Shown in pieces: positions 21,382 to 45,901 of a stretch of 64,000 bases of DNA. The notes under the pieces are model-generated. The model had not been told where the DNA came from. It saw only the letters and a list, made by a program, of their open reading frames with translations, and did not search any database. The translations under genes and the position numbers were made by a program. The DNA is taken from contig OY820905.2 in assembly GCA_963555755.3 (NCBI GenBank), forward strand, positions 2,464,001 to 2,528,000, read 5' to 3'. The DNA comes from Nitrospirales bacterium. Lineage in GTDB: Bacteria > Nitrospirota > Nitrospiria > Nitrospirales > UBA8639. The stretch's first letter is position 1; each line of letters opens with the position of its first letter.

Positions 21382-21460
21382 GTAATGCGTAAAGCGTGAT
21401 GCGAATAAGATGTTAAGTGATTTGTCTCCACGTATTACGCCTCACGCATTACGTTTCACG
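21382..21460. repeat. Inverted heptamer cassette (GCGTRAT family) overlapping the lipA stop
   Basis: GTAATGCGTAAAGCGTGATGCG ... CACGTATTACGCCTCACGCATTACG. Confidence 0.8.
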
Positions 21461-22381
21461 TCTTCCCACTTGCTGTTCGGCATGATACGAGCTTCTTACC
21501 AGTGGCCCTGATTCCACATGCTGGAACCCGAAGGATAAACCTTCTTCTTTCAATGCTTGGAATTCTTCTGGCGTATAAAACCGAGCAACCGGGGCATGGT
21601 CTTTTGTTGGGCGCAGATATTGGCCAAGAGTCAAAATGTCGCATCCAACTGCTCGAAGATCGAGCATCACGTCCCTGAGCTCGTCAAAGGTTTCTCCCAA
21701 CCCTGCCATCAATCCTGATTTGGTCAGTGCTCCCATGGATTTGGCTCGGTCGAGCAGTTCAAGGGAGCGCTGGTATTTGCCTTGAGGCCGGATCGAAGGA
21801 AACAGTCGTGGGACGGTTTCAATATTGTGATTGAGAATATCTGGCTGCTCATTCATCACGGTGGCGAGAGCGGATTCTCGGCCTTGGAAGTCCGGGATCA
21901 ACACCTCAACAGTACACGTGGGTATCTTGTTCCGGATTTGGCGGATCGTGTCCGCGAAGAGTGAGGCTCCGCCATCCTCCAGTTCGTCCCGGTTCACGGA
22001 AGTGATGACAGCATGCCTCAAGCCCAGGGCCTGTACAGCATCGGCAACCCGAACTGGCTCGTCTAAATCCAACTCATTGGGACGGCCTGTCGTCACCGCA
22101 CAGTAATGGCACCGGCGTGTACAAATATCACCCAGAATGAGAAACGTTGCAGTGCGATTGTTCCAGCATTCCCAGACATTTGGGCACCGGGCTTCTTCGC
22201 ATATAGTGTGAAGCCCGCGTTCGGTCATAATCCGCCGGATTTCCTGGTAATCTGGGCCCTGTCGGATTTTGACCTTGAACCAAGGAGGAAGATGCCCGTT
22301 TGAGGTCTGTTTTCTTCCCCCCCATGTTGAGTGCCGAATCTCATTCATCCGCACAAAGGTTATCGTTTCGTTTCCAGTCAC
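21449..22381 (-). CDS. lipA: Lipoyl synthase (true start possibly 22348)
   Basis: CEEARCPNVWEC, CTRRCHYC, RSSYHA. Confidence 0.95.
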   Translation of the reverse strand: MTGNETITFVRMNEIRHSTWGGRKQTSNGHLPPWFKVKIRQGPDYQEIRRIMTERGLHTICEEARCPNVWECWNNRTATFLILGDICTRRCHYCAVTTGRPNELDLDEPVRVADAVQALGLRHAVITSVNRDELEDGGASLFADTIRQIRNKIPTCTVEVLIPDFQGRESALATVMNEQPDILNHNIETVPRLFPSIRPQGKYQRSLELLDRAKSMGALTKSGLMAGLGETFDELRDVMLDLRAVGCDILTLGQYLRPTKDHAPVARFYTPEEFQALKEEGLSFGFQHVESGPLVRSSYHAEQQVGRRET

Positions 22382-22454
22382 GTTTCTTTTCCTTTTGCTC
22401 TTTTGGAAAGTGACGAATCATCCGTCGTTATTATCTCGTGACTTGTCTGCCTGA

Positions 22455-22594
22455 TCCCCTCGCCCCCGTGGCGGGGGAGAGGGCAAGAGTGAGGGGGGCA
22501 ACGAAGGTGCATAAGCGCGATCAATGACAAAACCGGGGTTAGAAAGTAGCCCCTCACCCCAACCCTCTCCCCACTGAACATGTGGGGAGAGGGA
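22455..22594. repeat. REP-like element (CCCCTCACCCCAACCCTCTCCCC family)
   Basis: Paired GC-rich palindromes; close copy at 25521-25657, relative at 30764-30886. Confidence 0.85.
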
Positions 22595-22643
22595 GTTTTT
22601 AGCGGGCCAGCTGTTCGCCTTGGGTCATTCATATTTTGTTCTT

Positions 22644-23480
22644 TCACGAAATACGAGAGACGAACGACGAACCCAATCTGTTCATCCCCCTGCCAGAGAT
22701 TCGAACATGTGCATCACGGGATTTTGCATTTTTTTGCTGCTGTGTCGCGATGGCTTCCAGGACGGAGCCAATACCGTCTCCTTTGAGAGCCACGGTCGCG
22801 ACAACCTGGGGAACCCAGCCCTGTAAATCACGTAGCGTCGCCTCGGCACCATCTCGGTCAGCCTTGTTGACCACCACCAGGTGGGCAATCTCTAACAATC
22901 CAGCTTTCATCGCCTGAATCTCGTCTCCGAGTCCTGGAGCGACCACCACCACCACGGTCTGGGCAAACCGCGCGATTTCTCCTTCCTCCTGACCCATGCC
23001 AACGGTTTCAATCAACACCACATCAAATCCAGCGGCTTCGAGAACTTTAAGTGCGCATCCCGTGGCTTTGGCCAGTCCCCCACGGTGCCCCCGTGTGGCC
23101 ATGCTCCGAATATACACGTGCTCGTCTAGCGAATGGTCTTGCATACGAATTCGGTCACCCAAGATGGCTCCTCCGGAAAAAGGGCTGCTTGGATCAACAG
23201 TCAATATGCCAACGTTCTTGCCCTCTGCTCGATACGCGGCTGCAAGACGATTGATCAACGTGCTTTTCCCAGCACCGGGATATCCGGTTATGCCAATGAC
23301 CGATGTTCGTCCAGATGAGGATCCAAGCTGGTTAATGAGTTCAGTGGCCTGGGTAAGATTGGATTCGGCCATGCTGATTAAACGGGAGACCGCACGAAGG
23401 TTTCCGCTTTTAGCTTGGTTCCAGAGGGACACGGGTTTATTGAGATCCTCTTCACGAACAGTCATTTGAGTTCCATCCAT
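22644..23480 (-). CDS. meaB: MeaB/ArgK GTPase chaperone of B12-dependent acyl-CoA mutase
   Basis: GYPGAGKST, VDPSSPFSGGAILGDRIRM, IRSMATRG, ETVGMGQ, NKAD. Confidence 0.93.
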   Translation of the reverse strand: MDGTQMTVREEDLNKPVSLWNQAKSGNLRAVSRLISMAESNLTQATELINQLGSSSGRTSVIGITGYPGAGKSTLINRLAAAYRAEGKNVGILTVDPSSPFSGGAILGDRIRMQDHSLDEHVYIRSMATRGHRGGLAKATGCALKVLEAAGFDVVLIETVGMGQEEGEIARFAQTVVVVVAPGLGDEIQAMKAGLLEIAHLVVVNKADRDGAEATLRDLQGWVPQVVATVALKGDGIGSVLEAIATQQQKNAKSRDAHVRISGRGMNRLGSSFVSRIS

Positions 23481-24412
23481 TAACCAGTATTAGCCCCAAC
23501 CATGGTTGAATTAGGCGGAGCGCTAAACGTTGAAGACAGAGTGTGCCCTAATTCTTTTGTGATTATCCCAAATGCTTCAACGACTTGTTTTTCATTGACT
23601 GCCAGGTGGGCATTCTGGGCTTTGAACGCTCTGACCAAGTCTTCGGTGGCCACATTGCCCGGGGCTCCTGGCGCATACGGGCACCCACCTAAGCCACCCG
23701 CACTCCCATCAAAATGTGTGATGCCAAACTGTTCCCACGCCATCAACGCATTGGCGATAGCCAACCGATACGTGTCGTGGAGATGCAAGCCGAGTCGCGC
23801 AGGAGGCCATTCCGCACACACGGTTTCTAACAAGGCCCGCATGTCATGAGGAGAGGCCTTGCCGAGTGTTTCGCCCAACGCGATCTCCTCCACGCCGATA
23901 TCCTGAAGCTGGCGCATGACCATCATCACGGCCTCCGGAGCAATTCGACCTTCATACGGACACACCACCACCGTTGAAATGTACCCTCGCACCTTCAATC
24001 CGGTTTGCTTTGCCCGAGACACCACGGGACGAAGGCGGGCGATGGATTCGGCAATGGTGGCATGAATATTATGTTGATTGAAGGAATTGGACGCCGCAGT
24101 GAAGACCGCAATTTTATCCACGCCAGCGGCTAATGCCCGCTCCAAGCCTTGTTCATTGGGCACCAGAGCCGTATACGTAACGCCCTTGGTTCGATTGATC
24201 TGCCGGAAGACTTCGTCGGTGTCTTTCATTTGCGGAACGGCCTTGGGTGACACAAAGGCGCCGACTTCGATTTCGGAGACCCCAGTGGCCGACAAGGCAT
24301 TAATAAAATTGACTTTCGTTTCAAGTGACACCTGTGTGCCTTCATTTTGGAGCCCATCCCTTGGCCCGACCTCGGTAATCCGAATGATCGTTGATTGTTG
24401 TTTTTCAGGCAT
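23480..24412 (-). CDS. liuE: Hydroxymethylglutaryl-CoA lyase
   Basis: EVGPRDGLQNE, FVSPKAVPQM, HLHDT, GLGGCPYAPGAPGNVATED; start at ATG 24412 with a GGAG RBS. Confidence 0.92.
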   Translation of the reverse strand: MPEKQQSTIIRITEVGPRDGLQNEGTQVSLETKVNFINALSATGVSEIEVGAFVSPKAVPQMKDTDEVFRQINRTKGVTYTALVPNEQGLERALAAGVDKIAVFTAASNSFNQHNIHATIAESIARLRPVVSRAKQTGLKVRGYISTVVVCPYEGRIAPEAVMMVMRQLQDIGVEEIALGETLGKASPHDMRALLETVCAEWPPARLGLHLHDTYRLAIANALMAWEQFGITHFDGSAGGLGGCPYAPGAPGNVATEDLVRAFKAQNAHLAVNEKQVVEAFGIITKELGHTLSSTFSAPPNSTMVGANTG

Positions 24413-24450
24413 ATTCACTCCCAAGGAACTATCCAGGTTGTAAGGGGCAA

Positions 24451-24650
24451 GGTTCAAAGTTCAGGGTTCAAAGTTCAGGGTTCAAAGTTCACGGTTCAGG
24501 GTTTTCGGATCACGGATCCTAACCCGAACCCCTGAACCTTGAACCCTTGAACCTTAATCCTCTGAACCTTGAACCCCTGAACCTTGAACCCTTGAACCTT
24601 AATCCTCTGAACCTTTAAACCCTGAACCCCTAAACCTTAACCCCTGAATC
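24451..24650. repeat. Inverted heptamer cassette (GTTCAAA/GTTCAGG family)
   Basis: About seven GTTCARR units followed by many CYTGAAC units; overlaps the 3' end of the hydratase. Confidence 0.9.
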
Positions 24651-25460
24651 TGACACCTGCGAAGAGGTTTTCACCCAATGCGGAGATCGCTTTTCAACAA
24701 AAGCCAACAGTCCCTCTGCTGCCTCAGCCGACCCTCGCATCTCAGCATTCACGCGGGTGCATAGAGGCCACTTGTCTTGATCCGGAAGTGCAAGGAGTAT
24801 CCGCAGGAATTTCTTCGTTTCCTTAATGGCTTCAGGTGCTCCTTGAAGGATATGTTCAATGAGCAGGTGAATGTGGCTATCGAGCTCCTCAGCTGGCACC
24901 ACTTCCTGAACCAACCCGACCTGTTTGGCAACATCGGCTGAAAAAATTTCTCCAGTCAAACACAAACGGGTCGTCTGGGAAACGCCAAGTCGTCGCAGCA
25001 AATAGGGCGCGATAATCGCTGGAATCAAACCCAACCGGACTTCGCGAAAGGCAAACTGGGCATCTGGTGAGGCTACAGCCATATCACACGCGGCAATGAG
25101 GCCCGCTCCTCCTCCAAAGGCTGCTCCGTGGACTCGGGCAATCACAGGATAGGGGCACTCGTCGATTGCCTGATACATCTGCAAAAGGTTTTCGGCGGCC
25201 TGCACTCGTTGGACTTTCGAGATTTGGTCGGTCGTAGTCAACCACTTGAGGTCCATCCCTGCGCTGAAGGTAGGGCCGGCTCCACCCAGGATGATGACCC
25301 GAACGTTCGGGTTTTGGCTAAGCCCCTGAAAAAGAGTAGCCAGTTCAATCACCATTTGAGGATTGAAGGCATTTCTGACCTCAGGTCGGTTCAAGGTCAC
25401 CTGGGCCACTGTATCCTGAATCTCAATTTTGACTGTCTCGAAATGTTTCATTGTGTTCAC
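24630..25460 (-). CDS. liuC: Enoyl-CoA hydratase, methylglutaconyl-CoA hydratase-like
   Basis: LNRPEVRNAF, FSAGMDL, GAAFGGGAGL, EVRLGLIPA; lies between the carboxyltransferase and HMG-CoA lyase. Confidence 0.85.
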   Translation of the reverse strand: MNTMKHFETVKIEIQDTVAQVTLNRPEVRNAFNPQMVIELATLFQGLSQNPNVRVIILGGAGPTFSAGMDLKWLTTTDQISKVQRVQAAENLLQMYQAIDECPYPVIARVHGAAFGGGAGLIAACDMAVASPDAQFAFREVRLGLIPAIIAPYLLRRLGVSQTTRLCLTGEIFSADVAKQVGLVQEVVPAEELDSHIHLLIEHILQGAPEAIKETKKFLRILLALPDQDKWPLCTRVNAEMRGSAEAAEGLLAFVEKRSPHWVKTSSQVSDSGVKV

Positions 25461-25520
25461 TCTAATTCGTATCTCGTATCTCGTCGTTCGAATTTCGTAA
25501 CTCGTGCCTCGTCTGTCTGA

Positions 25521-25657
25521 TCCCCTCGCCCCCGTGGCGGGGGAGAGGGCAAGGGTGAGGGGGGCAACGAATAGGCATACCCTCGTCCAAAGGCAAAACC
25601 GGAATGAAGTAGCCCCTCACCCCAACCCTCTCCCCACCAAACATGTGGGGAGAGGGA
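25521..25657. repeat. REP-like element copy, flanked by TCGTATC/TACGAAA heptamer arms (25466-25803)
   Basis: Similar to 22455-22594. Confidence 0.8.
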
Positions 25658-25804
25658 GTTAGGCGCTGGCCAATTCACAAATTGCATAAACCGTTCCTCT
25701 ATCCGTTTTTGTGCTACTCGATATCTACAATTGAAATTCAACACCGACGTCATTCGTATTTCCTTCTTTCAGGAAATACAAGGTGCGAAATACGAACGAC
25801 GGAT

Positions 25805-27412
25805 TTACCATCTGGACACAGGTTGCAGCGTAATGCCTCTTCTTGGGCGATAGACAATGTCCAGGCAAAGTCCGATCACCTTTCGTGTGTCAGCCGGGTC
25901 TATGATTCCGTCATCCCAAAGATGGGCAGAGGAATAGTAGGCACTCCCTTCCTGTTCATATTGTGCCAAAATGGCTTCGGTTTGTTTCTTCATCCCTTCT
26001 TCCGAGACTGCTCGTCCTTGCTGAGCAGTCTGAGCTTTCTTAATAGTGCTCAACACTTGAGCGGCCTGCGGGCCACCCATGACAGAAGTCCGGGAATTTG
26101 GCCACGTAAACAGGAATCGAGGGTTATACGCTCGACCACACATGGCATAATTTCCTGCTCCATGGGAGGCCCCAATAATTACAGTTAATTTAGGAACTTT
26201 TGAAGTCGCCACAGCTTGAACCATTAATGCGCCAGCTTTGATGATCCCCCGTTCCTCTTGCTGTTTTCCCACCATAAAGCCTGGAATATTTTGGAGGAAT
26301 ATCAGAGGAATGTTGCGCTGAGAGCACAGTTGAATGAAGTGTGCCCCCTTCGATGCTGATTCGATGAACAGGACGCCATTGTTGGCCACAATGCCAACGC
26401 GGTGTCCCATCCACTGTGCAAAGCCACACACCAATGTGGTTCCATACCGGGGTTTGAATTCTTGGAATCGGCTGCCATCAACCAGACGAGCAATGATGTC
26501 TTTGATTTCAAAGAGCTGGCGTGTGGTATTGGGAATCAAACTGTAGAGGTCCCTGCTGGGGTAGAGCGGCTCTTCCGGCTCGGATCGTTGACCGAAGCGT
26601 CGAGAGGGCTCTCCCCAATTCGACACGAGGTCTCGACAGAGTTCCAAGGCTTCCTGGTCACTTTCCGCAAGGTAGTCGCTCACGCCTGACAGGCGAGTGT
26701 GAAGATCAGCTCCTCCCAAGGCTTCTGCTGTGACATCTTCACCCGTTGCGGCTTTGACGAGCGGTGGCCCAGCCAAATAAATGGTCCCCGTGCCCTTGAC
26801 GATAATGTTCTCATCGCACATGGCCGGCACATAGGCCCCGCCTGCCGTACACATCCCCATCACCACGGCGAGTTGAGGGATGCCCATGGCCGACATGCGG
26901 GCTTGGTTAAAAAAGATTCGGCCAAAATCGTTTTTGTCTGCGAACACTTCGGCTTGCTTGGGAAGGAACACGCCACCGGAATCAACGAGATAAATCGCCG
27001 GCAGCCGATTTTGAAAGGCCACTTCTTGAGCGCGAAGGTGCTTCTTAATGGTCAGAGGAAAATAGGTTCCGCCTTTCACAGTGGCATCATTAGCCACGAT
27101 CACGCAGGGTCGCCCGGACACCATCCCAATCCCGCTGATCAGTCCAGCGGATGGAACATGATTGTCGTACAAATCCCAAGCGGCTAATGGGCTGAGTTCC
27201 AACCAAAACGACTCCGGATCAAGCAGCGCCGCAATCCGTTCGTGAGCCAAGAGTTTGCCTCGCTTGCGATGAAGCGCAACAGCATCTGAAGAGCCACCGC
27301 TGTGAACATGTTTTAAACGGTCCCGCAACTCGGACAGAAGTTGGTCGTTATGCACGTGATTCCCTTTGTAGGGATCAGCTGTAGAATCAATGGAAGAGTG
27401 AAGTGCTTTCAT
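25805..27412 (-). CDS. liuB: 3-methylcrotonyl-CoA carboxylase beta (carboxyltransferase) subunit
   Basis: [61 protein letters not shown]. Confidence 0.92.
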
Positions 27413-29355: not shown

Positions 29356-29373
29356 GTCTTACCTCATGGGGAT

Positions 29374-29458
29374 GTAATGCGTGATCCGTAATGCGTAAGC
29401 CGTCAATTTTTCTTTTCTCTACGCATAACCCATCACGCATCACGCATCACGCATCACG
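29374..29458. repeat. Inverted heptamer cassette (GCGTRAT family) overlapping the stop of the B12-binding subunit
   Basis: GTAATGCGTGATCCGTAATGCGTAAG ... (CATCACG)n. Confidence 0.85.
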
Positions 29459-29886
29459 AATTTATCTTCAAGCTCCAAACTTTTCACAAAATCGACGATC
29501 TCGCTCATAGTAGTCCCGGGAGGGAATAAATTGCGGATACCTTGTTCGCGAAGGTGTTGGACGTCTTCATCAGGGATGACTCCACCGCCGAATACGATAA
29601 TGTCATCGGCTCCTTGTTCTTTGAGCAGTTCCAATACACGGGGCAGCAGATAATTATGCGCTCCGGAATGTACGCTTAACCCGATCGCACGGACATCTTC
29701 TTGAATGGCAATGTTTACCACCTGTTCGGGGGTTTGGTGAAGACCCGTATAGATCACTTCCATACCAGCATCCCGAAGAGCACGCGCAACGAGCTTAATG
29801 CCCCGGTCATGCCCATCCAGGCCAACCTTTCCCACCAGCACGCGAATGGGTGGCTTTTGAGGCCCAACCTCTTGTGCGGCATTCAT
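29440..29886 (-). CDS. icmB: Cobalamin-binding small subunit of acyl-CoA mutase (IcmB-like)
   Basis: KVGLDGHDRG (DxHxxG), GLSVHSG, FGGGVIP. Confidence 0.85.
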   Translation of the reverse strand: MNAAQEVGPQKPPIRVLVGKVGLDGHDRGIKLVARALRDAGMEVIYTGLHQTPEQVVNIAIQEDVRAIGLSVHSGAHNYLLPRVLELLKEQGADDIIVFGGGVIPDEDVQHLREQGIRNLFPPGTTMSEIVDFVKSLELEDKFVMRDA

Positions 29887-30722: not shown

Positions 30723-30763
30723 AGTTTATGGCTTCGGTCCTTGTTCAATATTGTGAGCTCTCA

Positions 30764-30886: not shown

Positions 30887-30919
30887 GTTGGAACATTTAT
30901 TGATCACGTATCACTCTCA

Positions 30920-32524: not shown

Positions 32525-32541
32525 TATAGTAAGACCTCCTT

Positions 32542-32622
32542 CGTGAAGCGTAATGTGTGAAGCGTGAAACGTAAAAACAAAAAGGGTTTCATTTCTGACT
32601 CATCACGGTTCACGCATTACGT
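32542..32622. repeat. Inverted heptamer cassette overlapping the hbd stop
   Basis: CGTGAAGCGTAATGTGTGAAGCGTGAAACGTAA ... CATCACGGTTCACGCATTACG. Confidence 0.8.
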
Positions 32623-33483
32623 CTTCTGATATTCGTAAAACCCTCTTCCCGTTTTTCGTCCCAACCATCCGGCCTCCACATATTTCCGGAGTAGGGGACA
32701 AGGCCGGAATTTGGGATCGCCCATGTCTTGGTAGAGCGTTTCACAAATAGCCAAGACGGTGTCGAGACCAATCCGATCGGCCAACGCAAGAGGACCCATG
32801 GGCTGATTCGTTCCCAAAACCATCGCTTGATCGATGCCTTCAGCAGGGGCTACCCCCTCAGCTAAGGCAAACACCGCTTCGTTTACCAGAGGAATCAATA
32901 TGCGGTTCACAATAAACCCTGGAGCATCTTTTGATGCGATAGGCGTCTTCCCCATTTTTTTCGCGAGTTCGACCACGAGCGTGGTCGTCTCATCACTTGT
33001 CTCCAAGCCACGAATGACTTCTACTAATTTCATGACAGGGACGGGATTCATAAAATGCATCCCCACGACTCGATCACCCCGGCCTGCAGCTTTTCCCAAT
33101 TTTGTGATAGATATCGAAGACGTGTTGCTGGCCAACACCACCTCTGGTTTGCAAATCTGACCAAGTTCCAAAAAGATCTTTGACTTAAGATCAGGTTGCT
33201 CCGACGCGGCTTCAACAATGAATTGGGCTTCGGCCATGGCATCGAGTGACTGGCATGTCTTGATTCGACTCGCTGCCTCCACAACCTCCGAGGCGGTCAT
33301 CTCACCGGCTTCATGCTGCTTGGTAAACCCTTTCTGAATTCCAGCAAGCGCCTTGGTGAGGCGCTCAGGAGTCACGTCCAGCAGCAAGACTTCAAAGCCT
33401 GCTTTTGCACTGACCAGGGCAATGCCAGCTCCCATCTGGCCAGCACCGATGATTCCGATTCGTGTGATGTCGGAAAGTGTCAT
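32617..33483 (-). CDS. hbd: 3-hydroxybutyryl-CoA dehydrogenase
   Basis: GAGQMGAG, ASNTSSISIT, GMHFMNPVPVMKLVEV, PGFIVNR, GRKTGRGFY; start at ATG 33483 (the track ORF extends into a MITE). Confidence 0.92.
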   Translation of the reverse strand: MTLSDITRIGIIGAGQMGAGIALVSAKAGFEVLLLDVTPERLTKALAGIQKGFTKQHEAGEMTASEVVEAASRIKTCQSLDAMAEAQFIVEAASEQPDLKSKIFLELGQICKPEVVLASNTSSISITKLGKAAGRGDRVVGMHFMNPVPVMKLVEVIRGLETSDETTTLVVELAKKMGKTPIASKDAPGFIVNRILIPLVNEAVFALAEGVAPAEGIDQAMVLGTNQPMGPLALADRIGLDTVLAICETLYQDMGDPKFRPCPLLRKYVEAGWLGRKTGRGFYEYQKT

Positions 33484-33498: not shown

Positions 33499-33620
33499 GG
33501 GAATGTTGAAAAAAGCCGCCAGCGGCGTTCTCGCCCTTTTGCCGTGCTCACGTACTGAGAGTACGCTCCGCGCGTCAAAAGGGCTGCGGCCTTGCTGGAC
33601 GAACTTTTTTGAACATTCCC
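33499..33620. mobile_element. MITE family C (TIR GGGAATGTTGAAAAA)
   Basis: Terminal IRs GGGAATGTTGAAAAAAG / CTTTTTTGAACATTCCC; core GCTCACGTAC..GAGTACGCTCCGCGCG; copies at 47330-47549, 55133-55297, 56607-56821. Confidence 0.85.
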
Positions 33621-33663
33621 TGTGAAGCGTGATGCGTAAAACCAAAAAATTCCTTGGCTTTCT

Positions 33664-34858
33664 TTACGCATCACACTTCTGAATCATCACAGCCAATGCT
33701 TCGCCTCCGCCAATGCACAGACTAGCAATACCCAATCGCCCTCCTCGGGCCTCTAGCGCGTATAACAGCGTGGTGAGAATCCGAGCCCCGGTTGCGCCGA
33801 TGGGGTGTCCAAGTGCTACCGCGCCTCCATTCACGTTGACTTTAGATGGATCCAACCCAAGCTCCCGGTTCACCGCCAATGCAACGGAACTAAACGCCTC
33901 GTTGATTTCAAAAAGGTCGATTTGATCAATCGTATGGCCGGTTCGCTTGAGAAGATTTCGTACGGCATCCACCGGAGCGATGGTGAACCACTCAGGGGCC
34001 AATGCAGCTCCGGCATACCCCACGATTCTCGCTAGCGGCTTCATGCCTCGGTTAATAGCTACCTGTTCTTCCATGACCACCATGGCGGCAGCCCCGTCGT
34101 TGCAAGAGGGGGAATTGCCCACGGTCAACACCCCGTCGTCCTGAAACGCGGGTTTCAAGAAAGGCATTTTTTCCAGATTGACCCGATTAGGTTCTTCATC
34201 GTCGATCACAATGACCGGGTCTCCTTTTTTTGTGAGGAATTTCTACCGAGACGATTTCGTTTTTGAATGCCCCTGAAGCCATGGCCATTCGAGCCCGGCG
34301 ATAACTCTCTAGAGCAAACTCATCGGCTTCTGTGCGCGTGATGCCATATTTCTTTGCGCACAGCTCACCGCCATGTCCCATGTGAAATTGATTGTACACA
34401 TCCCATAACCCATCTTTGATCAGACTGTCCTCAAGTTCGCCGTGGCCCAGTTGATACCCCTGGCGTGCTCGCATGAGCAGATAGGGTGCGTTGGTCATAT
34501 GCTCCATCCCACCAGCCACGAAAATACTTCCGTCCCCCAGTTGAATGTGTTGGGACGCCATGATCACGGTTTGCAAACTCGATCCACAGACTTTGTTGAC
34601 GGTGGTGGCTCCGACGGAGTGAGGGATTCCTGCTCCGATCGATGCTTGTCGAGCTGGAGCTTGACCAAGACCAGCTGCCAACACGCATCCCATGAACACA
34701 CTGTCTACATGCTCCCCGGGAAGATCGATTCGTTTTAGGGCTTCCGCGATGGCCACACTTCCTAGCTTGGTGGCTGACAGGGGACTGTAGGCCCCACTAA
34801 AACTTCCCAGGGGAGTTCTGACCGCACTGACGATGACGGGCTGGTTTTGTTTGTTCAT
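33664..34858 (-). pseudogene. Acetyl-CoA acetyltransferase (thiolase) split by a +1 frameshift in an A7 run (possibly a sequencing error)
   Basis: N-part NKVCGSS; C-part NEAF, GHPIGATG, CIGGG. Removing one T from 34225-34231 restores PHKKGDPVIVIDDEEP. Confidence 0.88.
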
Positions 34859-34865
34859 AGTGGCT

Positions 34866-36023: not shown

Positions 36024-36043
36024 GTCTGCCTCCGTCTTTCGGA

Positions 36044-36188
36044 CGTGATGCGTGATGCGTAATGCGTGACCCGTAAAGAATGAAAAACTTCTAGTCTTTT
36101 CGCATTACGCGTCACGCATTACGCCTCACGTTGTTTTCCTCTTGTCTTTACACTTCACGTATCACGCATCACGCATCACGCGTTACGT
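36044..36188. repeat. Extended inverted heptamer cassette (GCGTRAT family)
   Basis: CGTGATGCGTGATGCGTAATGCGTG followed by two blocks of CATYACG repeats. Confidence 0.85.
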
Positions 36189-36197
36189 TTTCCCCTC

Positions 36198-37187
36198 TCA
36201 ATACGTTGCCAATTGACGAGCCGCTCGAAGCACATCATCGACCTTTGGTAAAAAGAACTCTTCCAATGGAGGGCTATAGGGAACTGGTGTATCAGGAGCG
36301 GCGATTCGAAGAATGGGCCCATCCAGGTGATCGAAACAGTATTCACTGATCAACGCGGAGATTTCCGCCCCAATGCCTCCGGTTTTCGTGGCCTCATGTA
36401 AGACGATGACCTTGCTGGTTTTCCGAACCGACTCCAGAATGGCTTCTTGATCCAATGGCAAAAGCGTGCGCAGATCCACCACTTCGAGGTCGATAGCTTC
36501 TTTTTCCAAGATTTCCGCCGCTTCTAAAGCCAGAGGAACCATGGCGCCATAAGTGATGACAGATATGTCGCGACCCGTTCGTTTGACGTCGGCTTTCCCA
36601 ATAGGAACGATGTAGTCCTCTTCTGGCAGCACTTCCTTGGCACGACGATACAGGTATTTATGTTCAAAATAGATCACGGGATTGTCATCGCGAATGGCGG
36701 CCTTCAGCAGACCCTTGGCATCATAGGGTGTGGATGGGGCTACAAGTTTTAAGCCCGGCGTATGGAAGAACCAAGCTTCGGGACAGACTGAATGGAACGG
36801 TCCGCCATGGATTCCCCCTCCATAGGGCGCCCGAATGACCATCGGAACAGCAGCACCCCATCGATAATGATTCTTGGCGGCAACCTCGGTGATTTGATCA
36901 AACGCGCAGGAAATGAAATCAGCAAATTGCATCTCCACCACCGGACGCATGCCCATCATAGCTGCTCCAATCGCGGCTCCAACAAACCCTGATTCCGCGA
37001 GTGGCGTATCCAGCACGCGCCATTCACCGAACTTTTTTTGAAATCCCTCGGTGACACGAAACGCCCCGCCATAAGGGCCAATGTCTTCTCCAAGAAGAAA
37101 CACTCGCTCGTCTCGGCTCATTTCTTCGTCTAAGGCTTGTGAGATGGCTTCTAAATAGGTCACTTCCTGAGAGATCGCTGTGGTCAT
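36198..37187 (-). CDS. bkdA2: 2-oxoacid dehydrogenase E1 beta, branched-chain type
   Basis: LGEDIG, DTPLAESG, EMQFADF, GGPFHS, FEHKYLYR. Confidence 0.88.
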   Translation of the reverse strand: MTTAISQEVTYLEAISQALDEEMSRDERVFLLGEDIGPYGGAFRVTEGFQKKFGEWRVLDTPLAESGFVGAAIGAAMMGMRPVVEMQFADFISCAFDQITEVAAKNHYRWGAAVPMVIRAPYGGGIHGGPFHSVCPEAWFFHTPGLKLVAPSTPYDAKGLLKAAIRDDNPVIYFEHKYLYRRAKEVLPEEDYIVPIGKADVKRTGRDISVITYGAMVPLALEAAEILEKEAIDLEVVDLRTLLPLDQEAILESVRKTSKVIVLHEATKTGGIGAEISALISEYCFDHLDGPILRIAAPDTPVPYSPPLEEFFLPKVDDVLRAARQLATY

Positions 37188-38221: not shown

Positions 38222-38244
38222 TATTTGTACCTCCTTGCGGTGAT

Positions 38245-39954: not shown

Positions 39955-40718
39955 CACGCTCCCCCTCCAGTTGTAACGCCCATTTGAGTGGGAGAGGAAT
40001 TGCCGATTATCGTTTCCCGATTCCGTTCCAATCCCATCCAAAACCCTTCGAGATAATCCAACACTTTTTTGACTCCATGGGAAAAGTTGGTTTCCTCGTC
40101 GGCTGATAAGGCTCCATGAGAAGACGAGTGGTCTTCCATAGCGGAAACAGCTTTCTCCATGGCATCCTCGTGTGTCGATTCCAGTTCCCGATGAAAGGTG
40201 AAATATTCCATGTCCATATGAGGGTGCCGGGAGCGTTTGAGCACCAGCAGCCCGGGAAGCAAATGATCCCACATCGTAATGGCCATGTTTTCCAAACCGA
40301 ACGATGCGCCTAAGGCCTGTTCGTGGTTGCCGCTGCTGTACAGCATTTCCATTCCTTCGATGTAGGCTTTGGTCGATGGCATCATGGGTCGGGTGAGGGC
40401 TTCTTGGATGGAAATGCCGACTGACGTGAGAAACCTTCGATACAACAGCTCATGGCGATGTTCCGGTTTCCCATCGCCTAATTCGGAATAGAGCACTCGG
40501 GTGAGTTCTTCGGCAATGGATTCGTCCTCCGTGTTGACTAGTTGCGAAACGAGGATTTTGGGGAAAAACCGAGCGAAGCTATAAAACTCGATGGCAAAGT
40601 CTTGAAGTTCAGGATCGGATAATTCGCCCGTTTGGAAACGAATCAGGTACGGATTATTAATGGCTCCATGTTTAAGGACGAAGTTCCGCTTGTCCTGGTA
40701 AAGAACTGACATAGTCAC
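39954..40718 (-). CDS. Heme-oxygenase-like diiron (HDO; CADD/PqqC/TenA-fold) enzyme
   Basis: Putative ligand pattern SELG...HRH, GLE, YFTFHRELESTH; GGAGG RBS; first gene of the leftward operon. Confidence 0.8.
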   Translation of the reverse strand: MTMSVLYQDKRNFVLKHGAINNPYLIRFQTGELSDPELQDFAIEFYSFARFFPKILVSQLVNTEDESIAEELTRVLYSELGDGKPEHRHELLYRRFLTSVGISIQEALTRPMMPSTKAYIEGMEMLYSSGNHEQALGASFGLENMAITMWDHLLPGLLVLKRSRHPHMDMEYFTFHRELESTHEDAMEKAVSAMEDHSSSHGALSADEETNFSHGVKKVLDYLEGFWMGLERNRETIIGNSSPTQMGVTTGGGA

Positions 40719-40859
40719 CTCCTCGGTCCTGAAAAGATCCTTCTTTATTGGCTACTTTTTTGAGGGGCCTTCTTGCCTTGCCAAGAAAGCCCCTGAGAGC
40801 CACTTTGGTTCCAGGATGTCTTGAAAACTCGCCAAATTGGTATCCCTCACCCTAGGCCT

Positions 40860-41060
40860 TGCCATTATTTATAATTTCGGTTTTATTATATTAATAATAA
40901 AATTTAATTATCCTATCATTTTTTTCAATATAACGATCAATTATGCTATGTTTTATGACGTATATGCTTATTGTAAATAATTACTCTAAATTTAATGATT
41001 GCAATACCCGATAAAAAATAATAAACTTTTATTATTAATTATAATATATTATTATCATGA
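40860..41060. promoter_or_regulatory. Very AT-rich divergent control region with near-palindromes
   Basis: Between divergent operons; e.g. TTTTATTATATTAATAATAAAA at ~40881-40902. Confidence 0.6.
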
Positions 41061-41242
41061 GAGTCTACCAGTCGCAACAGTTTTTTTCTATGACAGATGG
41101 GTGAGGAATCGCCCGATACGGAAAGATAGGTGCCTCTACCCAAGGCAACCTAATCATGGATTGCACCAAACGTTCGGCAAAGGAAAAACAACACCCAGTG
41201 TGGAATGAGTTACGACAGAACACATAATGAGGAGGTAGGCGT

Positions 41243-41815
41243 ATGGCAGGCACACTCGGCATTGATCACATAACGCTTTGCGTCCCTGATCTTGGGGCGG
41301 CGGAGTTCCTATTCAATCAGGTGCTCGGGTTTCACACTATTTGGTCTGCTCAGGATGTAGGGACGGAAAAATCCAGCATGGATACTATTGTGGTCCAACG
41401 GGATAGCATCAAAGTCGCGTTGATGCAGGGCAATGACAAACAAGAAAAGTCACAAATCACAGACTTTGTTGAACGATATGGTCCGGGGGTTCAGCATGTG
41501 GCCATCGAAGTCGATGATATCGAGGCTGTGTCCAATGAGTGGGAGGACCAAGGGGTGAAATTTTCTGGGCCAATCAAGGAGGGGAAAGATGGTTTTGGGC
41601 CCCTGAGACAACGATTTACTTGTCCCCTCTTTCCCGGCAGTGGAGTGTTTTTTGAACTCACTCAACGTCAACATGGGGAAGAAACATCGCGGACGTTTGT
41701 CAAAGGAACCGTGGAGTCCTTGTATCGTGACATCGAAAAGCAACAATCAGCCGGAGTTGGAGATACCATCATTGACTATAGTCGCCAGCATCAATGCGTG
41801 GATAATGAGAAATAG
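41243..41815 (+). CDS. VOC-family protein resembling the C-terminal catalytic half of 4-hydroxyphenylpyruvate dioxygenase
   Basis: GIDH, SQITDFVERYGPGVQHVA, VFFELTQR, VESLYRDIEKQQ; upstream of hmgA. Confidence 0.75.
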   Translation: MAGTLGIDHITLCVPDLGAAEFLFNQVLGFHTIWSAQDVGTEKSSMDTIVVQRDSIKVALMQGNDKQEKSQITDFVERYGPGVQHVAIEVDDIEAVSNEWEDQGVKFSGPIKEGKDGFGPLRQRFTCPLFPGSGVFFELTQRQHGEETSRTFVKGTVESLYRDIEKQQSAGVGDTIIDYSRQHQCVDNEK

Positions 41816-41830
41816 GACCAGGAGAGGACT

Positions 41831-42967
41831 ATGTACCTTGTAAAACGGGGTTCCCCCCCGAATCAAGCTCATGTTGATATTCCTGATGGACTTCATGAGG
41901 AAGAACATGGCCGGATGGGGTTTACGGGTCGGGTGTCTCATCTGTACCGGTCCCATCCTCCAACCAATTGGATCCGAATTGATGGTCCCTGCCGCCCACG
42001 AGCCTTTTCATGCAGCGAACTTCTAACTCCCGATCTTCGCTCGGACGATGATCGTCCCTTGGAGATCCTCCGAAGTTCCGATGTCCGGGTTTTCATTTCC
42101 CGTCGAGCCCACACCATGCCCTTTTGGTTTCGCAATGCGGATGGAGACGAGCTGCATTTTATCCATAAAGGTCACGGTGGGTATGAAACCGATTATGGCT
42201 ATCTTTCCTATGGACCAGGTGATTACATCTTACTGCCTAAAGGAACCACGTATCGCATTGTGGTCGAAGAAGGCCCAGGCCTTTCGCTGATTGTTGAAAC
42301 GCCCGATCCCATTTCCCTTCCGGAGCGAGGCCTGCTTGGGCAACATGCCTTGTTTGATCCAGGAGTGCTCACTGTTCCTGAACCCTTCGCCACTAGCCAA
42401 ACCCAAGATGAATACGAGGTCAGAATTAAACGCGATGGCACGTATACCCGGGTCTTTTACGCTTTTAATCCTTTGGACGTCGTGGCGTGGAAAGGTGATT
42501 TGTGGCCCACCAAACTCAACATCAAAGATTTTCGGCCCGTCACCAGTCCAGGGTATCACCTTCCTCCCAGCGTTCATGCGACATTTCAGGCTGGCGGCCA
42601 CGCTGCTGGCCAAACTGCTGGCCAAGCTGCTGGAATGATCATTTCCACCTTTGCGCCAAGGCCACTGGAAACTGATCCTCTAGCGTTAAAAGTTCCTTTT
42701 TATCATCGGAATATCGATTACGATGAAGTGTTGTTTTATCACGAGGGAGACTTTTTTAGTCGATCCGGGATTAAGCCAGGAGCACTCACCCTCCATCCCC
42801 AGGGCATTCATCATGGGCCGCATCCTGCCGCCGTGGCTGCGAGCAAAACGAAGACACACACCAATGAAGTCGCGGTGATGGTGGAATCACGCCACCCATT
42901 TCAAGTGCTTCTTGAAGCGGAAACCGTTGAACTCAAAGATTACCCTCTAAGCTGGAGCCAGCCATGA
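41831..42967 (+). CDS. hmgA: Homogentisate 1,2-dioxygenase
   Basis: EEEHGRMGF, RNADGDE, PLDVVAWKG, HLPPSVH, PFYHRNIDYDEVLFYH, HPQGIHHGP. Confidence 0.92.
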   Translation: MYLVKRGSPPNQAHVDIPDGLHEEEHGRMGFTGRVSHLYRSHPPTNWIRIDGPCRPRAFSCSELLTPDLRSDDDRPLEILRSSDVRVFISRRAHTMPFWFRNADGDELHFIHKGHGGYETDYGYLSYGPGDYILLPKGTTYRIVVEEGPGLSLIVETPDPISLPERGLLGQHALFDPGVLTVPEPFATSQTQDEYEVRIKRDGTYTRVFYAFNPLDVVAWKGDLWPTKLNIKDFRPVTSPGYHLPPSVHATFQAGGHAAGQTAGQAAGMIISTFAPRPLETDPLALKVPFYHRNIDYDEVLFYHEGDFFSRSGIKPGALTLHPQGIHHGPHPAAVAASKTKTHTNEVAVMVESRHPFQVLLEAETVELKDYPLSWSQP

Positions 42968-43950
42968 AACTTGTCACCTTCCAAGTATCCACATCAGTCG
43001 GAAAGTTTGCCCGTGTTGGAGCGTGCTTCAATGACACCATTGTCGATTTAAACATGGCGTATACGCGCATGCTGTCCGATCAAAAAGAAGCTCAATCGTA
43101 CCGAATGGCCCAAGCTGGAGTCCCCTCCACCATGATGGAATTGCTGGAGGGAGGACATTCGGCAATGGATCGAGCACGCACGGCTTTTCGGTATGTCACC
43201 GGAGAAGGCGAAGCCCGGCAGGGGCCGGAGGGTGAAACGATTGTCTATCCGGTTCAAACTATCCGGCTGTTAGCTCCACTTAATCATGTGCCGATGCTCC
43301 GCGATTTCATTGCCTTTGAAGATCACATCGCGGCGACCTCAAAACGACGTGGCCAGCCTATCCCTCCCGAGTGGTATACCGCCCCGGTGTACTACAAAGG
43401 CAACCCGCACACCATCCTTGGCCCTGATGAGGAACTTCCATGGCCACTCAATACGGAAAAATTGGATTATGAGCTGGAGTTAGCCTGTGTGATCGGCCGA
43501 ACCGGCAGGGATATTCCAAAAGACGAAGCAGATCAGTATATCGCGGGGTACACCATCATGAACGATTTCAGCGCCCGCGATGTCCAATTTCAAGAAATGG
43601 CCTGTCGGTTAGGACCGGCGAAGGGAAAAGATTTTGGCACGGTCTTGGGGCCATGCCTCATCACCCCTGATGAAATCCCCAATATCAACGACCTCACCAT
43701 GATCGCACGGATCAATGGAGAAGTGTGGTCCGAGGGAAAATTTGGAAGCATCCATTGGTCATTCTCGCAGATGATTCAACATGTCTCGCGAGGCGAGACC
43801 ATATATCCGGGAGAGGTGTTTGGTTCTGGAACCGTCGGTGGAGGCTGTGGGCTGGAATTGAATCAATTCTTGAAACCTGGAGATCTTGTCGAGTTGGAGA
43901 TTCAACCAATTGGAATATTGCGAACTCCGGTGGCTATTGAAAAGACGTGA
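42964..43950 (+). CDS. fahA: Fumarylacetoacetate hydrolase family protein
   Basis: RDFIAFEDH, LDYELELA, NDFSARDVQ, KGKDF, GSGTVG. Confidence 0.88.
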   Translation: MKLVTFQVSTSVGKFARVGACFNDTIVDLNMAYTRMLSDQKEAQSYRMAQAGVPSTMMELLEGGHSAMDRARTAFRYVTGEGEARQGPEGETIVYPVQTIRLLAPLNHVPMLRDFIAFEDHIAATSKRRGQPIPPEWYTAPVYYKGNPHTILGPDEELPWPLNTEKLDYELELACVIGRTGRDIPKDEADQYIAGYTIMNDFSARDVQFQEMACRLGPAKGKDFGTVLGPCLITPDEIPNINDLTMIARINGEVWSEGKFGSIHWSFSQMIQHVSRGETIYPGEVFGSGTVGGGCGLELNQFLKPGDLVELEIQPIGILRTPVAIEKT

Positions 43951-44021
43951 TGCGTAATGCGTGAGACCTAATGCGTAACAAATCTTTATTTTTCGCTTCA
44001 CGCATTACGCTTCACGCTTCA
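43946..44021. repeat. Inverted heptamer cassette providing the fahA stop
   Basis: CGTGATGCGTAATGCGTGAG ... CTTCACGCATTACGCTTCACGCTTCAC. Confidence 0.85.
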
Positions 44022-44037
44022 CCGCCAAAAGGAGACC

Positions 44038-44805
44038 ATGAACGCCTTGGCTTCCCATGAAAAGAGACTGGCTCAAGTCATCGACGATCATCGATTACTG
44101 TATGCTGACCCCACGGTCGAGACGAAGCTCCGACAGCTGATTGATGTATCACCTCATTCTTTTTTAACCGAGAGTGAGCTGCTCGAGCTGTTTCGCCGGA
44201 CACAATCAATCTTTTTCAACACCCATCTCGAAGTTGCTTCTGGTCACCATACAGGTACGTATCTTCGGTTTGAATCGATTGCTCATTTTCCTGACCGGAT
44301 CGACATCATTGTGCAGGACATGGCCAATTGGGTGTCCAAGTTAGACAAGGATCAGAAAGTCCATGGCATCATGGTGCCCAATTCTGATGCGAGATTGTTG
44401 GCGGAAGGAATTGCAAACAGACTGAAAAAACAAGTTCCTCTACGTGTTGTCCCAGCCCCCTTTGATCCCACAACTGGAAGAATTGGGACCGATGTGCCAC
44501 CTGAAAAAATTCAAAAAGGTGAGCACTTCATCGCATTCAATGATGTCACCGCTCGTGGCAACTGCGTCAACAAGCTTGGCCAAATTGTCACCGATCGTGG
44601 GGGGACAGTCGTGGGCATGATGGTCTTCGCGAGACGAGACAGCGGTCAGTTTCCTTTCATGGATGAGCTTGCAGCTCAGTACCCCTTTTATTATAGCGTC
44701 GGTTTAGACATGCCTCAGTGGAAACAATCAGAATGCTCGTTGTGTCGCCTCGGTGAAGAATTGTTGAGTTGGCGTGATATGCCGTTGTTAAGACGTGAAG
44801 CGTAA
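44038..44805 (+). CDS. Type I phosphoribosyltransferase-fold protein (PyrE-like, atypical PRPP loop)
   Basis: HLEVASGHHTGTY, FIAFNDVTARGNC, C-terminal ECSLC. Confidence 0.7.
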   Translation: MNALASHEKRLAQVIDDHRLLYADPTVETKLRQLIDVSPHSFLTESELLELFRRTQSIFFNTHLEVASGHHTGTYLRFESIAHFPDRIDIIVQDMANWVSKLDKDQKVHGIMVPNSDARLLAEGIANRLKKQVPLRVVPAPFDPTTGRIGTDVPPEKIQKGEHFIAFNDVTARGNCVNKLGQIVTDRGGTVVGMMVFARRDSGQFPFMDELAAQYPFYYSVGLDMPQWKQSECSLCRLGEELLSWRDMPLLRREA

Positions 44806-44862
44806 GGCGTGAAGCGTTAAGATTAAGGAGAAGGTCTTTTCTTCTACGCATTACGGATCACG
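44794..44862. repeat. Inverted heptamer cassette providing the PRTase stop
   Basis: CGTGAAGCGTAAGGCGTGAAGCGTTAA ... TACGCATTACGGATCACG. Confidence 0.8.
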
Positions 44863-44924
44863 AGATAGAGGAGTACTCCAGCCATGAGCCTGACGACAAA
44901 CGGATCTCATCAAGAATTGAGATC

Positions 44925-45704
44925 TTACTGGTCCTGGAAATTGGGCTGGCGTTTTTCTAAGAAGGCATTGATGCCTTCTTTGGCATCCTTCGTTTCAAAC
45001 AACTCGCCAAAGAGCTCGGCTTCCTGGGCTAATCCTTCAGCCAGTGGATTGTCTTGTGCCGCACGAAGGGCACGCAATACGGCTCGAAGGGCCAGGCGCG
45101 CTTTTTGTGCGAGTCGTGCGGCGAATTCCTGTGTGCGAGGCAAGAGATCGGCCTCAGACCACACTGCATTCACTAAGCCACAACGTTGGGCCTCATCGGC
45201 GGAAATCAGTGACCCGGTCAAAAGTATTTCCGTGGCTTTTGACAGCCCAATGAGTTTGGGCAGGCGTTGGGTGCCCCCCCATCCAGGAATCAAACCGAGA
45301 TTGACTTCGGGAAGACCAAACGAGGACGCAGGCGAGGCGAAACGAAGATGACAGGCCAGAGCCAATTCTATGCCGCCTCCAAGACACGATCCATTGATCG
45401 CAGCGAGAACGGGTTTGTCCAGTTGTTCAATCCGATTCAGCAGGGCTTGACCATGAAGCGACACATCTTTTGCTTGTTGAGGGGTGTCGATGTGTTGCAG
45501 TTCTTTGAGGTCCGCTCCTGGACAGAAAAACCGGCCGGATGAGGTAATAACCATGACTTTGATGGAAGAATCTGTTGCCAATCGGTCGACAAGCCGACCC
45601 AATTCAACCAAAACCCGTGTGCTCAAAAGATTAACGGGAGGATTATTGAATGTGATCGTGGCGACACGATCGACAACGGAAAGCACAAGAAGCTCGTTCG
45701 ACAT
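44925..45704 (-). CDS. Enoyl-CoA hydratase (crotonase)
   Basis: FCPGADL, CLGGGIELALACH, PEVNLGLIPGWGGTQRLP. Confidence 0.92.
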   Translation of the reverse strand: MSNELLVLSVVDRVATITFNNPPVNLLSTRVLVELGRLVDRLATDSSIKVMVITSSGRFFCPGADLKELQHIDTPQQAKDVSLHGQALLNRIEQLDKPVLAAINGSCLGGGIELALACHLRFASPASSFGLPEVNLGLIPGWGGTQRLPKLIGLSKATEILLTGSLISADEAQRCGLVNAVWSEADLLPRTQEFAARLAQKARLALRAVLRALRAAQDNPLAEGLAQEAELFGELFETKDAKEGINAFLEKRQPNFQDQ

Positions 45705-45901
45705 TGACGCACCTATTCCTTCGGAGTTGATGTCGTGGATACTGGTTCGTGAGAGGGATGAGTGAGTGGTTCATGGGAGCAATGGGTTAAGAGTAATGGG
45801 TAATGGGTAAAAAAACAATCGTGATTCGTCATGCGCAAAGCGTAAGAAAAAGAGGGTTTTTATGCCTCACGCCTTACGAATCACGAAAAAAGAGGTTCTC
45901 A

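Follow-up and report, generated by a model that had tools for sequence, protein, structure and literature searches.

Inverted arrays of degenerate seven-nucleotide units, here termed family-A cassettes, are located at the 3' ends of genes of a Nitrospirales bacterium, and individual copies are present or absent among its close relatives. They are probably gene-less derivatives of a small selfish element, which in its filled form carries a four-helix-bundle gene (PF05635/TIGR02436) between the heptamer arms. An earlier note on a 64,000-nt window of this genome (the whole stretch of DNA that was analysed) listed eight such cassettes, all of which were found where it had placed them, and in six of the eight the outer arm contains the stop codon of the upstream gene, at a depth of 9-23 nt; the protein tails are exactly as quoted there. 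The proposed location at operon junctions applies to the six cassettes found at same-strand junctions, but those at 44790 and 45816 occupy a convergent and a divergent gap, respectively. Some gene names also had to be revised: "fahA" and "PRTase" are family-level matches that fall short of NCBIfam cut-offs, and "thiolase" denotes the latter half of a gene broken by a frameshift. The cassettes (bounds set by the profile; strand "." where none is assigned) and adjoining genes of the window are as follows:

21384..21464, strand., family-A inverted heptamer cassette; lipA stop 16 nt within the outer arm
29376..29462, strand., family-A cassette; mutase B12-binding subunit gene ends 23 nt within the arm
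32545..32625, strand., family-A cassette; hbd stop 9 nt within the arm
33624..33679, strand., family-A cassette; thiolase stop 16 nt within the arm; adjoins an unrelated palindromic repeat
36047..36197, strand., family-A cassette (36047-36127) accompanied by a third arm (~36155-36190), in the gap separating the E1-beta gene from the E2 gene
43942..44020, strand., family-A cassette; stop of the FAA-hydrolase-family gene 9 nt within the arm
44790..44859, strand., family-A cassette in a convergent gap; PRTase-like stop 16 nt within the arm
45816..45882, strand., family-A cassette in a divergent gap; no stop near, PrpD-like gene 19 nt further
24448..24628, strand., cassette of family 4, a sister heptamer family
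25464..25805, strand., cassette of family 3, also a sister heptamer family; interior 258 nt
21449..22096, strand -, lipoyl synthase gene (lipA), 3' part, ORF reaching 22381; last codons encoded by the arm
29440..29886, strand -, acyl-CoA mutase C-terminal (B12-binding) subunit gene, TIGR00640; arm-encoded tail
32617..33483, strand -, 3-hydroxybutyryl-CoA dehydrogenase-like gene (hbd); arm-encoded tail
33664..34209, strand -, thiolase gene, second half, separated from the first by one inserted nucleotide near 34225-34232; tail encoded by the arm
36198..37187, strand -, 2-oxoacid dehydrogenase E1-beta gene; own stop, cassette or not
42964..43950, strand +, FAA-hydrolase-family gene; tail unlike that in G005 after a small indel
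44038..44805, strand +, phosphoribosyltransferase-like gene, weak pyrE match; arm-encoded tail, identical in G005

Anatomy and placement of the cassettes

The genome contains 103 family-A cassettes. In each, inverted arrays (median of approximately four heptamer units) enclose a short spacer, and arm polarity never varies. Tracts of period 7 number 187, compared with 9-39 for periods 5, 6, 8, 10, 11 and 13, and 159 of them are intergenic. Family-A arms number 141+133, and the reversed genome yields 14+24; 98 of 133 have an inward-facing partner no more than 100 nt away, and none of 141 has an outward-facing one within 200 nt. The cassettes are far beyond chance expectation. The units are more degenerate than the (GCGTRAT)n consensus quoted in the earlier note; their most conserved position is an A, and their profile contains no G run, i.e. 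none of the G-tracts of a quadruplex. Five heptamer families (A, 1, 2, 3 and 4) were distinguished in this genome or its kin. Family A does not consist of near-identical dispersed copies of the MITE type: its spacers are nearly all unique, with a sibling for 7 of 94, whereas 20 of 32 family-2 sites have a common spacer.

Mapping against the ends of 4375 genes, predicted with a simple in-house gene caller, revealed that the cassettes are concentrated at stop codons. Among neighbouring gene 3' ends, 92/123 lie within 15 nt of a family-A cassette and 45/123 overlap an arm, while only 18/81 gene starts are as close. At same-strand junctions the cassette is closer to the stop in 60 of 67 cases, convergent gaps are occupied more often than divergent ones (28 versus 7 of the 103 cassettes; p 6e-5), and in roomy gaps 20 of 36 cassettes hug a stop (5.5 expected). 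This preference could reflect survival instead of targeting. The earlier note had weighed its proposal against random placement and unchanged C-termini in orthologues lacking the repeats; placement is non-random, and at two junctions the gene end differs in alleles that lack the cassette.

Filled forms and turnover among relatives

We know of no role for PF05635 proteins outside rRNA. In this genome (G000), all four PF05635 matches sit in heptamer arms, and for each of the five families a form containing the gene exists, here or in kin:

Family A: G000 (C1:3789357-3790013, interrupted), G002 (intact) and G008; PF05635/TIGR02436 gene between the arms
Family 1: G000
Family 2: G005, G006 and G039
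Family 3: G003 and G020
Family 4: G000

These forms, of the ORF-containing kind that the earlier note had suggested looking for, support the link it had drawn between heptamer arms and four-helix-bundle genes and its suggestion that the cassettes are empty derivatives. The interrupted gene is the only family-A gene detected in G000, and the family-2 gene of G006 is not counted as intact because of an apparent frameshift near its start. Empty copies outnumber filled ones by about 100 to 1. GxxExxY (PF13366), considered as an alternative cargo, has no match in the genome.

The relation of empty to filled copies is clearest in family 2, whose empties begin with the head of the gene; one of them, of 113 nt, is composed of the head (97%) and tail (92%) of the G005 gene. 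Family-A spacers contain no recognisable gene fragment and have only the arms in common with the filled form. Since they carry no gene piece and so few have siblings, the descent of family A from its filled form is argued from the arms they have in common and by analogy with family 2. The family-A cassettes are likely gene-less derivatives of the heptamer-armed four-helix-bundle element. The association extends to homologous gene loci, of which 48/104 have 7-periodic tracts on both sides (inverted in 39), against 1/394 shifted controls; the other 56/104 lack tracts on both sides. At least 20 model matches were obtained in 11 of 21 genomes with PF05635 and in 1 of 20 lacking it, which is consistent with the link, although it is a rough comparison among the matches listed, covering both strands and kin that are not independent. 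A protein tree built by a quick method (77 rows; 40 of 74 branches left open) unites the three family-A proteins (96%), but co-evolution of protein and heptamer cannot be shown from it.

Comparison with relatives revealed filled, empty and absent alleles at matching junctions. Between ybeY and ftsY, where the filled copy of G000 is located, a filled cassette is also present in G002 and G008, while in G005, G003, G004 and G001 the stop of one gene overlaps the start of the other. The stretch 36047..36197 is missing from G005, X8 and X10, and its counterpart in L146 has two arms and is 64 nt shorter; one relative of 95% identity has the same operon junction without the 36047 cassette. By eye, this E1-beta/E2 junction in nine relatives is cassette-free in five, carries heptamer arms of another unit in three and is unclear in one. 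The 32545 cassette is present in L146 with one unit more, 47 other letters stand in place of the 29376 cassette in sediment relatives, and the downstream neighbour of the mutase-subunit gene differs in all eight relatives found. No clean target-site duplication was readable at the two empty sites (E1-beta/E2 and ybeY-ftsY), at which gain and loss cannot be told apart.

Most family-A copies are old and common to relatives of 92-95% identity. All 18 cassettes of G005 (compared over ~0.59 Mb of 2.2 Mb, overlaps included) and 11 of 13 of G006 (compared over ~0.12 Mb) occur in G000, the cassettes having been picked partly by score. The term "mobile micro-element" used in the earlier note fits the gain or loss of cassettes at single junctions. 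Present-day movement of family A does not follow from the data, in which just 7/94 spacers have a sibling. Within retained copies, 18 of 32 alignment gaps of at least 4 nt measure 7 or 14 nt, and variable unit positions change at 0.21, compared with 0.08-0.10 at fourfold sites. Core positions change at 0.044, below the 0.06-0.10 expected from neutral change and detection bias. Strong purifying selection on the core was considered and is undercut by a simulation in which detection bias accounts for part of core conservation, the quick change at variable positions being the larger effect; therefore we claim modest constraint or homogenisation, and no more.

Stop codons, hairpins and slippage

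The earlier note had proposed that the cassettes donate stop codons. Stops do lie in the arms: 41 of 103 family-A cassettes overlap one, 37 of 86 near stops share one phase of the heptamer, and the outer strand of 571 of 655 units includes a stop. The accompanying claim of stops in all three frames is true of 152/206 arms, though not of every arm. Such figures could be taken to mean that the arms are selected as donors of stop codons or as insurance against read-through, but this explanation is largely contradicted already and we consider it very improbable. Where the stop is in an arm, tail length was altered in 5 of 12 cases, compared with 1 of 25 edge comparisons (p 0.009; the comparisons are not independent). 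The FAA-hydrolase-family gene of G005 retains its own stop immediately before the arm, and outer-strand stops occur in only 3/79 units of family 3 and 1/104 of family 4. The E1-beta stop is at the identical codon in cassette-bearing and cassette-free alleles, and LipA tails vary freely (by eye) among relatives lacking this cassette; the 29 LipA loci compared (one cut off; 69-81% identity) are too distant for dating the insertion. The 30 letters read from the cassette-free mutase-subunit allele do not include its stop. Because the E1-beta stop is unchanged, the arm-encoded tails are labile and two sister families are almost stopless on that strand, stop donation looks secondary, probably a side effect with no function of its own. 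Given their instability, arm-encoded C-terminal tails should be assigned no meaning by annotators.

A stronger case can be made that the host keeps the cassettes as REP-like 3' hairpins tuning mRNA stability or processing, translation, or subunit stoichiometry. Folding is predicted for all eight copies in the window (z -3.2 to -7.5; -28.6 kcal/mol and z -3.6 for the predicted RNA hairpin at 21384), 15 of 28 convergent gaps leave at most 30 nt beyond the cassette, and a lowering of translation is reported for E. coli REPs located no more than 15 nt from a stop (PMC12306157). The slower core change and the retention of the majority of copies in relatives of 92-95% identity point the same way. 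However, arms match their own partners no better than random arms (0.720 versus 0.729), so there is no covariation; swapped arms fold as well as native ones (-23.3 against -23.9), and sense and antisense strands fold alike. A role as intrinsic terminator was rejected, since only 3 of 63 same-strand cassettes have a U-run. In the 95% relative, the E1-beta/E2 operon junction occurs with no cassette. We regard maintenance by the host as possible but rather doubtful; it is also compatible with a selfish origin.

The unique spacers, the frequent gain and loss of units, the rapid change at variable positions and the lack of a readable target duplication would suit arrays formed in place by 7-mer slippage and template switching, in which no cassette moves as a whole and the four-helix gene is merely resident. 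This is unlikely in view of the fixed polarity (98 inward, none outward), the five discrete unit families each matched to a gene-filled form, the single deletion-derived spacer at 20/32 family-2 sites, and the filled cassette wholly present or absent at the ybeY-ftsY junction. Under the preferred origin from a selfish element, empties would arise by internal deletion of the gene, followed by spread or persistence. A site at the stop would be tolerated, since most outer arms contain stops in every frame; a gene that suffers a small indel would then end a few codons on, within the arm. Slippage or conversion may then reshuffle the units, keeping a common core and scrambling the other positions.

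Relation to known systems and possible routes of movement

Several known systems resemble the cassettes in part. The closest PDB match of the four-helix-bundle protein is XCC0516 (2GSC; E 6e-25), and 2RLD was also matched, while a profile search of PDB with this protein did not reach Avd. PF05635/2GSC is reported to be homologous to Avd, with a five-bundle assembly cited for XCC0516 (PMC10053308), and an Avd-like fold of the cargo protein, based on these sequence matches, is putative. Unlike DGR/Avd systems, the cassettes have no reverse transcriptase beside them, and their variation is not adenine-specific, A being the most conserved position. ORF-bearing intervening sequences of 23S rRNA, as described for S23p of Coxiella and Leptospira (PMC4990558), share the protein family, terminal inverted repeats, location within a host transcript and sporadic occurrence, but the cassettes lie between protein-coding genes (the filled copy between ybeY and ftsY, the window copies between enzyme genes) and not in rRNA genes, and their arms, made up of imperfect heptamer arrays, show no covariation with the partner arm. 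REP/REPIN-RAYT elements, as described, are likewise short, inverted, extragenic, non-autonomous and long-lived, lie near stops and number ~100 per genome; the cassettes differ in having arms of tandem heptamers instead of single palindromes, and a four-helix-bundle gene as the linked gene in place of a Y1 transposase. No enzyme that might mobilise the cassettes was found: Y1 genes lie within 1.5 kb of any arm in 2 of 17 cases, neither of family A (random expectation 18%), 1 of 35 reverse transcriptase matches is near any arm (not above random), and the N-termini of 21 genes flagged between tracts (3895 examined) do not look like those of a transposase.

A putative Avd-like oligomer might recognise its own heptamer, the insertion chemistry being borrowed from the host or a trans-acting enzyme. 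REPIN-like movement at the DNA level is a tentative candidate route, an RNA intermediate with a borrowed reverse transcriptase a somewhat fainter one, and the rest of the likelihood falls to recombination or other routes. More speculatively, the cassettes could represent a transposase-free mobile element, in which a pentameric Avd-like protein would read its own array (~4-5 units per arm) and a borrowed enzyme would copy the hairpin cassette just past stops; we regard this model as conceivable but rather unlikely. Heptamer repeats and PF05635 genes are tied together five times in this genome, and with the matched alleles these pairings make the binding of each protein to its own heptamer directly testable.

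Intergenic heptamer repeats are reported to be over-represented in bacteria, an excess left unexplained there (PMC4692102, PMC4679880). If the model were true, every clade of the protein would give rise to a heptamer family of its own, the published Xanthomonas one included, which would account for this excess. In Beggiatoaceae (MacGregor 2015, PMC4679880), a heptamer supplies a stop in each of the three frames, 13 sets extend over the stop of the gene upstream and a mobile origin is discussed; unlike family A, these repeats are direct, lie mostly just 5' of starts and form no inverted cassette in that account, whose text does not mention "four helix bundle" or "IVP".

For the empty elements there is a precedent in print in Xanthomonas (Rehm 2015, PMC4692102). 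According to that study of Xanthomonas and Nostoc, a genome contains ~185 degenerate heptamer runs, mostly of four units and within 50 bp of stops, some overlapping them; there are 70-75 convergent inverted pairs, 83% are retained in a sister species, and divergent gaps are rarely occupied. Family A is similar in its ~4 units, inverted layout, 92/123 stops within 15 nt and 7/103 divergent locations, but the Rehm unit is G-rich and was interpreted as a quadruplex. The main text of that paper contains none of the terms "helix bundle", "S23" and "xcc0516" and reports no mobile-element link, and our literature search found no paper joining empty heptamer pairs to a four-helix-bundle gene. Its supplement, however, lists a heptamer run immediately before XCC0516, the top PDB match of the cassette protein, which we count in favour of an origin from the gene-bearing element.

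Heptamer cassettes in the window and across the genome

The window spans positions 2464001-2528000 of the main contig (C1) of a 4.62-Mb genome (G000), probably from Nitrospirales, judging by where its kin fall among named sequences in a tree. Period-7 tracts occur 187 times in this genome, 159 of them between genes; the counts at six other periods are 9-39. A unit profile learnt from these tracts was then used to search the genome, which revealed five heptamer unit families exceeding background: that of the eight window cassettes (family A) and four sister families (families 1-4). Family-A arms number 141 and 133 (14 and 24 when the genome is reversed); inward pairing was observed for 98 of 133 and outward pairing for 0 of 141. 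The median cassette has 4 units per arm and a 25-nt spacer, A-rich and then T-rich.

All eight cassettes previously reported in the window (21382, 29374, 32542, 33622, 36044, 43946, 44794 and 45820) were found in place, six between same-strand genes, one in a convergent and one in a divergent gap. The earlier note had also placed the ends of six upstream genes within the repeat; all six were recovered, in the outer arm and with the same C-terminal tails. As family assignments, their names were right: lipoyl synthase, mutase C-terminal subunit, 3-hydroxybutyryl-CoA dehydrogenase, thiolase and FAA-hydrolase family, the match of the phosphoribosyltransferase being weak. Each window cassette has a predicted RNA hairpin, with folding energies from -26 to -44 kcal/mol that 0 of 200 shuffles matched in stability.

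In the thiolase gene a 1-nt insertion, located in a T-run (window 34225-34232), divides the reading frame. That frame is open in a relative's locus (L146) and in the 95%-identical relative G005, and the extra base is absent from sequencing runs X8, X10, X13 and X14; the split is due to a frameshift specific to this strain or else to an error of assembly. Other 7-8-nt tandem tracts with different units (window 45777-45810, 1564-1608 and 1695-1727) include one directly preceding the 45816 cassette. The window also holds two ORFs of equal length, 181 aa (7185-7730 and 11558-12103), of which the former matches LexA weakly. Elsewhere on the main contig (C1), five identical family-4 cassettes lie in tandem with a 159-nt period (4379943-4380686). 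The small contig C2 (14 kb) is probably an assembly duplicate: it has the same content as a stretch of C1 near 4.14 Mb, and hits in the two score identically.

Placement at gene ends and stop donation

Of 103 family-A cassettes, 67 lie between same-strand genes, 28 in convergent and 7 in divergent gaps, and 1 inside a called gene. Convergent gaps holding cassettes outnumber divergent ones 28 to 7, against a background of 519 to 605 (p = 6e-5). With gene ends taken from our own gene calls, 92 of 123 neighbouring stops are no more than 15 nt from a cassette's outer edge and 45 overlap it, while the corresponding figures for starts are 18 and 1 of 81. The stop is the nearer neighbour of 60 of the 67 same-strand cassettes, and at least one stop is overlapped by 41 of the 103. 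Even in gaps with at least 60 nt to spare, 20 of 36 cassettes hug a stop (5.5 expected). This preference reflects either targeting or survival.

The proposal that the repeat places stops in all three frames holds for 152 of 206 family-A arms and fails for the remainder. For stops at least 9 nt inside an arm, 5 of 12 comparisons with G005 or another compared genome, G006, show a different tail length; for stops at the arm edge or outside it, 1 of 25 does. In the case of the FAA-hydrolase gene, the G005 stop falls just before the arm and a small indel takes the window gene into it. Families 3 and 4 carry almost no stops on the strand concerned and are situated further from gene ends than family A. 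Since tails are labile and these two families are nearly stop-free, the arm stops are best read as what allows family A so near gene ends, not as its purpose.

Four-helix-bundle genes and cassette turnover

Cassettes enclosing a four-helix-bundle gene (filled forms) account for all PF05635 matches in G000: 4 of 4 lie inside heptamer arms, and the 3 that were scanned all passed the TIGR02436 cut-off. Among homologous four-helix loci (110 fetched, 104 scorable), 48 are flanked on both sides by 7-periodic tracts, 39 of these inverted, versus 1 of 394 shifted controls. The family-A filled copy of G000 resides between ybeY and ftsY, and an unrelated palindromic repeat, accompanied by a 5-bp duplication, interrupts it; at this junction the filled cassette is intact in G002, present in G008 and missing from G005, G003, G004 and G001, in which the stop overlaps the next start. 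Filled copies of families 1 and 4 occur in G000, of family 2 in G005, G006 and G039, and of family 3 in G003 and G020. Two clusters of A-rich family-1 cassettes (C1:3231179-3235374 and 3159148-3159701) bracket a pair of four-helix genes that are almost identical; both flanks hold whole cassettes.

Family-2 empty cassettes start with the first codons of the four-helix gene, one retains 113 nt comprising the gene head and tail, and 20 of 32 have a common spacer. These remnants are direct sequence evidence that family-2 empties are internal deletions that then multiplied. Most family-A spacers are unique: siblings exist for 7 of 94, five of the seven in a set borne between the ends of another repeat. 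For this family, internal deletion of the filled form is therefore inferred from the shared arms.

Three alleles were identified at the E1-beta/E2 junction: none, two-arm (L146) and three-arm (window genome). G005 is cassette-free here, with a 12-nt gap, and X8 and X10 share this joint, on short sides. Judged by eye, 5 of 9 relatives lack a cassette at this junction, 3 have arms built from different units and 1 is ambiguous. At the mutase-subunit junction, X13 and X14 contigs run across the site and have 47 different letters there (an identical loose end is seen in X16), and the open frame runs on to a different tail. Over the fetched stretches of G005, to which 30 family-A cassettes map, 18 are present, 3 one-armed and 9 scored absent; by eye, the nine comprise 2 decayed copies, 3 that are truly missing and 4 from the repeat-borne set. 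G006 has 10 of 11. Cassette turnover is moderate. At L409 of G005 (ortholog of C1:3263975), an other-type heptamer cassette is nested between family-A arm remnants.

Arm evolution, mechanism and precedent

In 29 orthologous pairs, change rates are 0.044 at the four core unit positions, 0.21 at the three variable ones, 0.16 in spacers and 0.13 in near flanks, and 18 of 32 gaps of at least 4 nt measure 7 or 14 nt. Fourfold sites differ from G005 by 0.08-0.10, and a neutral simulation with the same detection filter gave 0.06-0.10 at core positions; the variable positions are therefore fast, which fits shuffling of units, and conservation of the core is no more than modest. Family-A arms resemble their own partner no better than a random arm (0.720 vs 0.729), and swapped arms are predicted to fold equally well. 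This speaks for a repeated motif being recognised, or for homogenisation, rather than for selection on an exact stem. Our preferred reading is a selfish cassette, its four-helix protein putatively reading its own heptamer. It may spread slowly via a borrowed enzyme, and filled cassettes would decay into gene-less hairpins, tolerated at stops. We consider a host role for the predicted hairpins rather unlikely. Neither reverse transcriptases (1 of 35) nor Y1 transposases (2 of 17) are enriched near heptamer arms in G000. Many of the 35 reverse-transcriptase matches fall in identical-scoring sets, resembling multiplied group II introns.

The feature is real, and its empty form has published precedent. 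For Xanthomonas heptamer repeats the same empty anatomy has been described (inverted pairs, four units, stop overlap), with 83% retained in a sister species (Rehm et al. 2015, PMC4692102), and for a Beggiatoaceae heptamer three-frame stops and 13 stop overlaps (MacGregor 2015, PMC4679880). The cargo protein matches Xanthomonas XCC0516 (PDB 2GSC, five chains), reported as similar to Avd of diversity-generating retroelements (PMC10053308). The supplement of Rehm et al. places a heptamer run directly before XCC0516, on which the main text is silent (PMC4692102). Full-text searches, covering mainly open-access literature, turned up no paper that joins such arrays to the four-helix gene. The link of heptamer cassettes to this protein family without known function is well supported and apparently unpublished.

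A 122-nt palindromic MITE-like repeat (window 33499-33621) occurs at about 289 places in G000 and is also very abundant in G005 and G006; one copy is that interrupting the family-A four-helix gene. Six family-A cassettes (C1:985735, 1280429, 1356499, 3303093, 3656299 and 3756616) lie between its ends, far from stop codons, five of them with a common spacer. Because G005 has a plain repeat interior and no cassette at two of these six sites, comparison of the two genomes suggests conversion or hitch-hiking.
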